From Eledone cirrhosa (Eukaryota): a stretch of DNA of 64,000 nucleotides. The notes beneath the pieces are model-generated. The model saw nothing but the letters and a program-made list of their open reading frames with translations, did no database searches and had not been told where the DNA came from. Positions 38,673 through 41,113 of the stretch are shown in pieces (position 1 is the first letter of the stretch; the number at the start of each line of letters is the position of its first letter). The position numbers and the translations under genes are program-made. The stretch is from assembly GCA_964016885.1 (NCBI GenBank), contig OZ024751.1, positions 39,990,001 through 40,054,000 of the forward strand, read 5' to 3'.

Positions 38673-40154
38673 GAAAATAATCAATACATTATAGATACAT
38701 ATATACACACACACACACACACATATATATATATATATATATATATACGTACATATAACACGCAAATGTCAACAAACCAATTACGTTTTTAATTAAATGT
38801 CTGTTTAAAACTACTTCTTATCGCTGCATCCATATAATAAAAATGTATGAAGTATTTGACATTTATAAATCGATTCTGTTAATCGTAAACTGATGGATCC
38901 TCCGTCGATTTCGATGATGATTGTATCAGTTGTCCGATCAACTCAATGTCCAAATCAACGGTCAAGTGGTTGAAAATTCCACAGACGCATGATTCGTGAA
39001 ATGTGATCAAACTAGAACTTTCAATTACAGACGGGCTTCCCCATAGTTTCCGTCTGCCCAACTTCACTCATAATGCTATCAGTGTTAAATGACACACATA
39101 ATGGTATTGACCCCAAGACTTCCTGATTGGAACCCGAACATCTTAACCACTTATTTTCTAAGTTCATAAACTTTATTTTATACTCATTCAACCGTATCCA
39201 ACCACTTTTTTCTTACTCATCAATGTGTCCTTCTTTTTCAAAAACAATAGAATGTAATTCGATATAGACTGTGTTGCTATTTCTAGCAGGTTGAGTGACC
39301 TTGTAGTATTTCCCTCGAATATTTTAAACTTAATAATAATAATGAAAATTATATATATATATATACATACAAACATACATACATACAAACCTGCATATAT
39401 ATATATATATATATGTGTATATATATATATGTATATATATATATATATATATATATATATATATATATATATATATATATATATATATATATATATATAT
39501 ATATATATATGTGCAGGTTTGTATGTAGGTGTGTATATCGTTGGGGCGGGGACTATGTATGTGCGTATGACAACTCATATACCATATAAATCTCATAAAC
39601 AGATATTTAAATCTTGCAACTATAAGAGATTCGCCATCTTGAAAAGAGATTCAAACAGATTAGTTTCGCCTGACATTAATGAATTATTGTGGATTTCTAA
39701 TGTTTTGTCTTTCAAGTTGTCACGGTTTATTAACATAGTGTTGGTTATATAACTATAAAGAAAATGAAGATAAATATTATTAAATTTACATAAGCGGATG
39801 ATGTTGACGGTCTTAAATTAATAATTATAGTAGCAATACTGCGTAGGTTAGTAACATATGTGTAGAAAGTAAGACATATACTATATGTTTAATATATATA
39901 TATATATGCGTGTGTGTGTGTGTGTGTGTGTGTGTGTGTGTGTGTGTGTGTGTGTGTGTGTGTGTGTGTGTGTGTGTGTGTGTGTGTGTGTGTGTGTGTG
40001 TGTGTGTTAAAATCTAGCTTCAGCATAGCTGTATACATACAAGTGTGGGAATTCCGTATGTTTAATAAATAAACATTTTCAAAGCCAAGCTATGAATTGA
40101 AGGGCTGGCAGCCAGCACCGTCTAGCGGATTCCAGCAGAATCAGCAGAGAATAA

Positions 40155-40193
40155 CTGTCTATGCATTTCAACCTCTGGCTCTCATCAGAACAG
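40155..40193 (-). ncRNA. Minimal type I hammerhead ribozyme
   Basis: Minus strand: CTGTT CTGATGA G AGCC AGA GGTT GAAA TGCA T A GACAG. Stem I is 5 bp, stem II 4 bp, stem III the palindrome ATGCAT; AUA site. Confidence 0.85.
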
Positions 40194-40276
40194 TGCTTCT
40201 CCTTGCTCTCTGTTGGAACTTGAAACAGGCGAAAATATATAGGTTTTTCGCCTGTGTAGGAGGGTTGATTAGTCTC

Positions 40277-40301
40277 ATTTGCATATGAAGCTTATTTGCA
40301 T
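40277..40301 (-). promoter_or_regulatory. Two perfect octamer motifs (ATGCAAAT)
   Basis: ATTTGCAT on the plus strand at 40277-40284 and 40294-40301. Function is inferred only. Confidence 0.45.
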
Positions 40302-41113
40302 ATAAGTTGGTTCAACTTAAAAATAGAATTAAAATTTAGCTTCGGCATAGCTTTGGGGCACGACTTAAGTCCCACCTTGTATAAATAGCTGGGATGGCCA
40401 TAAATGGAATCCCATTGCTCAATCTAGGCTAACATATACATATCTTTAATAGAAGTTAGAGTGCTGTGTTAAATTTATTACACTAATTTGTAATTTCCCA
40501 GCTAATGAAAGAATAAACATATTAGATAGTGTAGTCCAAGTTGTAGATACAATATGGCTGAAAATAAACTGAATTGGTCATAACTAGAACCCATGTTTGT
40601 TCAAAGCTAACATTGAAATTTCTGGAATATGCATATAATACAATAATCGTTTATTTTATACTGATTATTATATTAGGCATCAAAGGAATCATTATTACAT
40701 AAAAGGCATATTCTAGATAAGACTACGTTAGCCTAGATCAAACAGAGGGTTCCAGCTATGGCCACATCGGTTTATTTTCAGCCATATTACATCCAGAACT
40801 ACATCATTTAACATGTCTTTATTCTTCTCTAATTGACTGTAAAATTATAAAGCAGTGTTAACAGGTTTGCTAGAACACTGTAACTTCCTGCTTCTTCATT
40901 ATCGGAATATTAGTAAATGTTTTCTATGGTGTTAACCAAAGATTTATCATTAAGCACAATTATCATTCCATTGGCAGAACAATTGCGTATAATTGCTTTC
41001 AATCAACACAACATGGAACCAAGTCTTTGGTAAAATGTCAAGCAGAGGCAAAAATAATAATTCTTCATTCAATCTATGAAAGCAATTTCTTGGTTGTGAT
41101 GTCTAAAACTAAT

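Follow-up and report, generated by a model that had tools for sequence, protein, structure and literature searches.

A solo, decayed copy of a many-copy hammerhead repeat family, likely a non-LTR retrozyme, in Eledone cirrhosa

A 346-nt insertion on the minus strand of Eledone cirrhosa contig OZ024751.1 (assembly GCA_964016885.1) carries a hammerhead motif, promoter-like words and a short terminal repeat, and raises the question of what kind of element it is and whether it acts as a gene. It lies in a stretch of 64,000 nt (positions 39,990,001 to 40,054,000 of the forward strand), hereafter the window, which is A/T-rich and microsatellite-laden; coordinates below are those of the window. A first-pass annotation made from the letters of the window had read the insertion as a satellite-2/retrozyme-like RNA gene. 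Following the analysis described here, it is regarded with moderate confidence as a solo, decayed and dispersed copy of a many-copy, non-coding family of type I hammerhead units of about 325-335 nt, likely a non-LTR retrozyme, probably copied from tandem or circular RNA by the reverse transcriptase of a Penelope-like element (PLE).

Anatomy of the insertion and of its family

The insertion and its neighbour on the 3′ side were delimited as follows.

40007..40352, minus strand: whole insertion, a 322-nt unit plus a 24-nt terminal redundancy; 346 nt, non-coding, 39% GC
40329..40352, minus strand: 5′ copy of the 24-mer, matching the 3′ copy at 22 of 24 positions (blastn)
40007..40030, minus strand: 3′ copy of the 24-mer, a tail-like redundancy with a T4 run at its end, recovered as a blastn match to the 5′ copy
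39892..40006, no strand assigned: (CA)n then (TA)n microsatellite in the flank, abutting the 3′ end of the insertion; probable target

The ends of the insertion are sharp. As annotated earlier, the 24-mer copies lie 322 nt apart, and their likeness ends abruptly on either side. A repeat search of the window did not place the 24-mer among the 20 largest families listed, while blastn did recover it; by the same program, the rest of the 64-kb window contained no second copy of the unit. All six frames of the unit are interrupted by stop codons, and no ORF was present in 40007-41100. The whole stretch folds better than its shuffles (z = -3.06). Folded as a circle, the unit reached -78.8 kcal/mol (z = -3.7, 0 of 100 shuffles as good), and the opposite strand folded at least as well (-86.0 kcal/mol). 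The microsatellite adjoins the insertion on the 3′ side only. No TSD was found, the longest word common to the two flanks being 7 nt and lying far from the ends. Reverse transcription likely began in the 3′ 24-mer.

In the flank on the other side, 43 nt from the unit, an imperfect single-copy foldback (40395-40887) has arms that are 69% alike over about 436 nt, and a 57-nt segment of one arm is present a third time. Its G.U-type mismatches are without strand bias (12 vs 17), and it therefore looks like an old inverted duplication. Being single-copy in the contigs, it was rejected as part of the element. A degenerate 8-bp tandem repeat array occupies 41097-41810.

Family data were obtained from contigs of three runs of one DNA sample, aligned to 39990-41070 at 80% likeness and giving 860, 799 and 865 aligned records per run. 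The locus was listed in this one sample and in no RNA dataset, an absence that carries no information on expression. The data are letter tables of that sample rather than sequences of separate copies, with linkage between positions unreadable, and all shares given below are fractions of summed contig depth, not of copies. Summed bin depth was 470-9425 over the unit versus 2.7-17 over 40360-41070; the lowest unit-to-flank ratio across runs, 80-185x, is a ratio of depths and not a copy number. Depth dropped to flank level after 40352, and sequence was single-copy from the bin starting at 40360. With about 800-865 aligned contigs per run and deep coverage relative to the single-copy flank, the proposed multi-copy family was borne out, and we infer tens to hundreds of copies. 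Both 24-mers were at family depth (about 700-1750 vs 3-8 for single-copy sequence). At position 40022, where depth was 1230-1758, 45-49% of it showed the letter of the 5′ copy.

Some copies are joined head to tail. Of 69 joints, 15 were listed, and three of these lead back from 40337 or 40352 to positions 40029 or 40056/40057, in 4, 3 and 3 contigs; the unit lengths implied by such joints are 323, 324, 327 and 336 nt. The letters intervening at the joints are diverged forms of the window sequence that continues from the 24-mer; in one case, compared by eye, they matched window positions 40031-40056 at 18 of 26. The 24-mer thus lies between unit sequence in other copies, as the first-pass annotation had anticipated, and is therefore element sequence and not a TSD. 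The short side of the joints measured only 31-42 letters, at a single-copy-like depth of 4-19, so that partial tandems are possible. No contig with two complete tandem hammerheads was seen, and a high-depth 322-nt going-back joint was absent from the 15 listed of 69. Short contigs in repeats would hide deep joints, and the data are compatible both with arrays and with their absence.

At 18 of the 40 variant positions listed (65 in all), the letter in the window copy is not that of the majority, giving a divergence of at least about 5%. At least 20 unlike letters followed in 15% of aligned records, and no extension at either unit end was shared among the 18 rows of loose ends listed (609 more). 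At 40204, 17 and 22 contigs in two runs matched the side of the candidate promoter and then ran into a median of 144-160 diverged letters in the ribozyme region, possibly a subfamily with another hammerhead, at a consensus agreement of only 0.54. About 30 contigs per run had loose ends at 40056 and 40059, with an additional palindromic stretch of ~18 nt that is missing from the window copy and would give a longer unit variant. Between 10 and 12 records per run extended past an end of the aligned stretch; one is the flank contig, and the remainder may come from copies that likewise have (CA)n next to their 3′ end. An A-rich loose-end consensus hinting at a longer T run (agreement 0.64-0.71) was set aside.

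Hammerhead ribozyme and candidate promoter

The ribozyme part of the unit consists of two features.

40154..40194, minus strand: type I hammerhead; helix I of 6 bp, core at 40188-40182 plus 40169-40166, helix II at 40181-40170, decayed in this copy
40129..40219, minus strand: long extension of helix I, about 28 bp with bulges, obtained by folding

The core CUGAUGA / GAAA / UA was located at 40188-40160 on the minus strand, and none of 5000 unit shuffles gave such a core enclosed by a helix I of 5 bp or more. Helix III is a single A-U pair that closes the palindrome UGCA. The cut is predicted between 40160 and 40159, following standard hammerhead numbering.

This copy had been described as an intact minimal hammerhead, a description that could not be upheld. 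In one register, helix II has a G.U closure and a G.G mismatch; in the other, which corresponds to the earlier minimal reading, it has an extra nucleotide, an A-U closure and a 3-nt loop, and it is predicted to be weak in both. The hammerhead alone folds no better than shuffles (z = -0.09). Rfam returned 0 matches at gathering score in the whole window, and the 15 weak matches near the unit, up to E = 10, included no hammerhead.

In 68-78% of depth, the letters at 40170, 40172 and 40189 convert G.U to G-C, G.G to G-C and U.G to C-G. Most of the depth therefore has a canonical helix II, unlike the damaged one of the window copy: the majority hammerhead has a 4-bp helix II directly after the core, with a G10.1-C11.1 closure and a 4-nt loop, and its helix I is fully Watson-Crick. 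The extra nucleotide before helix II is absent from this form and is a possible register in the window copy and a minority. Variants at 40213, 40219 and 40189 restore or keep pairs of the helix I extension in other copies, and at 40193/40155 both partners of the pair vary, in matching proportions (26-29% and 27-33%), linkage not being seen. Pair-breaking variants occur at 40150 and 40146 (83-84% and 59-62% of depth, unless the helix register shifts by one), 40179 (12-21%) and 40181 (15-18%, U). Core position C3 at 40188 is altered in 9-19% of depth.

Upstream of the ribozyme, the following promoter-like features were recorded.

40294..40301, minus strand: upstream octamer, the minority form, with a 10-nt word in common with the downstream octamer
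40277..40284, minus strand: downstream octamer ATGCAAAT, candidate promoter element; no variant among the 40 rows listed of 65
40225..40255, minus strand: 11-bp hairpin with a 9-nt loop, z = -6.1
40236..40241, minus strand: TATATA box in the hairpin loop, of putative function; no variant among the rows listed

The word ATGCAAAT has just two occurrences in the 64-kb window, both on the minus strand of the unit (40284-40277 and 40301-40294), and at least two octamers were obtained in 7 of 5000 unit shuffles. The 10-nt word recurs at 17-nt spacing, and in 74-78% of depth the upstream octamer is removed by a 5-nt gap at 40293, together with 2-nt gaps at 40299/40300. The two are therefore not independent, and the upstream one is likely a local duplication. 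Of the octamer pair annotated earlier, both members are thus present in the window copy and the downstream one is common to most of the family, whereas the second is found in a minority.

The annotated hairpin was recovered one base away from the earlier estimate; 24-37% of depth has one of its pairs (40251) disrupted on the sense strand. The TATATA box in its loop had been missed. It follows the downstream octamer by 35 nt and precedes CA at 40212-40211, the predicted start, by 30 nt. As no listed variant falls in either element, the majority form likely carries both the downstream octamer and the TATA box. This conservation was not accepted as proof of selection, the probability of 14 variant-free positions by chance being 0.17 (40 rows) or 0.05 (65 rows). 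One common octamer and a TATA box are thus present, and no PSE is identified; judged by these motifs, octamer and TATA box are a possible promoter. A CCAAT-like word at 40272-40266, which by eye falls in a small hairpin in the majority form, is not claimed as a promoter element.

Related elements in the window and in other animals

PLE remains are present in the window. A GIY-YIG reading frame at 18191-17778 (minus strand) matched Pfam PF01541 (E = 2e-5), and its only longer protein match, 1 of 77 candidates, was from Octopus bimaculoides (59% identity); this match and SINE-like sequence of octopus type point to a likely octopus host. The surrounding region, 17200-18560 (minus strand), is the 3′ end of a PLE, comprising a CxxC motif and the GIY-YIG frame, followed by a minimal hammerhead (17465) whose helix II has 6 bp; around it lie duplicated and inverted pieces interleaved with (TA)n. 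PLE-type minimal hammerhead cores at 13765 and 16391 (both plus strand) have an extra A preceding a helix II of 4 bp, together with a CG palindrome, and lie in a microsatellite-rich setting. Between the unit and these three PLE-type regions only A/T words of 12-15 nt were in common, so that no mobilising partner could be named from them. Elsewhere in the window, a near-perfect 24-bp inverted repeat at about 61915-61967 (minus strand) contains CUGAUGA and GAAA locked in a hairpin, and repeated C-terminus fragments of a non-LTR retrotransposon (zf-RVT, PF13966; profile tested for 1216-1752 only) occupy 552-1811 and 28747-29640 (minus strand).

The hammerhead-family pattern gave 0 matches in metagenome and viral contigs. 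A pattern of octamer, TATA and CUGAUGA was found at 116 loci in 4 of the 64 parts of the metagenome collection; one locus met a loose stem filter but appears to be a chance match, one had a 40-nt blastn match outside the ribozyme, and no relative was found among the 116. Literature searches returned no description of a cephalopod retrozyme family, with the qualification that supplements of retrozyme papers may list molluscs. They also returned no paper combining satellite 2, octamer, hammerhead and promoter and, among the matches listed, none linking octamer/ATGCAAAT with Penelope. The giant squid paper reports 235 Rfam hammerhead matches, given without context in the portion consulted.

Metazoan non-LTR retrozymes include those of mussel (about 350-390 bp) and axolotl (330/350 bp), according to the available text of Cervera and de la Pena (2020; PMC7229834). 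The same text describes them as non-coding units of 150-450 bp with GC <50%, a type I hammerhead, a weak palindromic helix III, head-to-tail joints, a self-paired fold and PLE co-occurrence. In these respects the present family is alike, having a type I hammerhead in a 322-nt unit of 39% GC without ORF; it differs in that the copy studied is a solo unit plus 24 nt and that no full dimer was seen in the contigs. The canonical metazoan type I design (helix I ~6 bp, II 4 bp, III 1-2 bp, palindromic loop; PMC4209133, as excerpted) was found in the majority letters, in 68-78% of depth. The axolotl hammerhead HHR_Amex1 has a one-pair helix III and a palindromic tetraloop, as does the majority form here, and cleaves well only as a dimer (excerpts of PMC7229834). 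Retrozymes are said to seem promoterless in the available part of a 2020 review (PMC7761336), whereas the unit here carries an octamer and a TATA box.

Solo retrozyme monomers, and an origin of retrozymes from PLE pseudo-LTRs, have been described by Li, Clavereau and Pollet (2026, bioRxiv 10.64898/2026.07.22.740005). In the accessible portion of that preprint, retrozymes and PLEs form one lineage, solo monomers are likely dead offspring, and the survey comprises 31 vertebrates, 3 insects and 1 coral, with no mollusc. The insertion resembles such monomers as a dispersed hammerhead-repeat monomer in a PLE-bearing genome, and is unlike them in that no parent pseudo-LTR was found among the three PLE-type regions of the window.

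In PLEs, reverse transcription starts internally, leaving a 'tail', and hammerhead cleavage is unneeded in vitro (PMC11167929, in part). Single Penelope copies are flanked by a 34-bp repeat, and the Drosophila Penelope promoter lies within the pseudo-LTR and is TATA-less (PMC2377424, in part). The insertion is partly like PLEs in its short terminal redundancy, its microsatellite neighbour on the 3′ side and the absence of a TSD (partial texts of PMC4209133, PMC8557442, PMC11167929 and PMC2377424). As in the PLE literature excerpted, its type I hammerhead would need a dimer and its candidate promoter would lie inside the repeat. It is unlike PLEs in having no RT or GIY-YIG ORF at the locus, a single-copy upstream flank, a majority hammerhead without the extra nucleotide before helix II, a redundancy of 24 nt versus the 30-40 bp PLE tail and, compared with Drosophila Penelope, a TATA box in the candidate promoter.

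Newt satellite 2 reportedly contains an octamer. It is likened to the present unit by description, not by sequence, in its ~330-nt unit, one-pair helix III hammerhead and internal promoter-like elements. Satellite 2 is unlike the insertion in being tandem and in having an internal snRNA-type Pol II promoter (Coats, Zhang and Epstein 1994, via the available part of PMC2220036), where the present unit has an octamer and a TATA box, with no PSE identified. Since both satellite 2 and Penelope have promoters within their repeats, an internal promoter has precedent.

Alternative readings and a possible route of propagation

The main rival to the retrozyme reading takes the family for short non-autonomous PLEs, pseudo-LTRs turned elements, which would spread by partial-tandem linear transcripts with the hammerhead as a passenger and no circle. 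We consider it unlikely. It would agree with the short repeat at both unit ends, like that of single Penelope copies, and with the 3′ microsatellite, the absent TSD and the short, low-depth joints seen. The dispensability of hammerhead cleavage for PLE insertion in vitro also suits it, as does the extra-nucleotide fold, which is possible in the window copy and is accompanied by U at 40181 in 15-18% of depth. In the Xenopus preprint, as far as excerpted, one of nine dimers tested cleaved (bioRxiv 10.64898/2026.07.22.740005). The 4-bp helix II of the majority form, having no extra nucleotide, is however unlike the PLE-type cores of the window at 13765, 16391 and 17465, and the helix upstream of the predicted start is maintained by pair-restoring changes. 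The two readings are ends of one continuum. A further reading makes the unit the 3′ pseudo-LTR of a longer coding PLE, 5′-truncated at this locus; the first pass had raised such a PLE 3′ end. It is improbable here: PLE remains are common in the window and 15% of aligned records run on into unlike letters, yet the flank past 40352 is single-copy and without ORF, the 18 rows of loose ends listed have no common extension at either end, and the redundancy repeats the unit's own start rather than an ORF start.

Another reading, a small-RNA gene of Pol III type 3 (U6/7SK-like) or retrocopies of one, with an octamer and a TATA box driving an RNA of ~200 nt from ~40211 to the first T4 at 40012, is more improbable still. 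An octamer and a TATA box upstream are the architecture of type 3 promoters, both are found upstream of the predicted start, and no four-T run intervenes between that start and the 3′ end. A T4-free gap of 200 nt is, however, not rare at such composition (~0.2 by a rough hand estimate), no PSE is identified, and the transcript would omit the promoter, although contig depth over the promoter part is second only to that over the A/T-rich 3′ segment. Scarcely credible is that the 24-mer is a long TSD, as had also been considered in the first pass, or that the motifs met by chance. TSDs of 24 nt do exist. Those of retrozymes, when present, are >4 bp (PMC7229834, in part). Against this stand the family depth of both 24-mers, the unit sequence on either side of the 24-mer in other copies, with which the TSD alternative fails, and the 0 of 5000 shuffles that produced the hammerhead core with helix I.

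Under the favoured retrozyme reading, source loci arranged head to tail would be transcribed, and the octamer and TATA box upstream of the ribozyme may serve as their promoter. Two hammerheads would then pair via the UGCA palindrome and excise a unit-length RNA, which a host ligase would close into a circle, as in the model given in excerpts of PMC7229834. Finally, a PLE reverse transcriptase/endonuclease would prime internally, next to a microsatellite, and carry synthesis through a single round plus 24 nt. Such internal priming would explain both the redundancy and the ends of the insertion, which lie 153 and 192 nt from the predicted cut; these distances argue for a circle or an uncut tandem as template and not for a cut linear monomer. 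An insertion of exactly one unit plus 24 nt, with ends out of register with the cut, is consistent with internal priming of the PLE type. The window copy itself, a lone unit with one hammerhead whose helix II is damaged, is predicted to release no monomer, and the locus is therefore likely inactive and a likely dead offspring of the family, which weakens its designation as an RNA gene.

Elements of this kind are already known as small parasitic retroelements of many animals. The class has been recorded in corals, mussels, insects and amphibians, to which the present insertion would add what is probably a cephalopod family, and the octamer and TATA box, 30 nt upstream of the candidate start, bear on how animal retrozymes are transcribed. 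We suggest, tentatively and as less than an even prospect, that a cephalopod retrozyme family may bring its own octamer and TATA promoter, carried in the RNA circle inside a hairpin, and that its dimers may be self-driven, POU-regulated sources of circular RNA. If true, such a self-promoting circle would be a counterpart, in a distant phylum, of newt satellite 2 and would contradict the idea that read-through is what animal retrozymes depend on.
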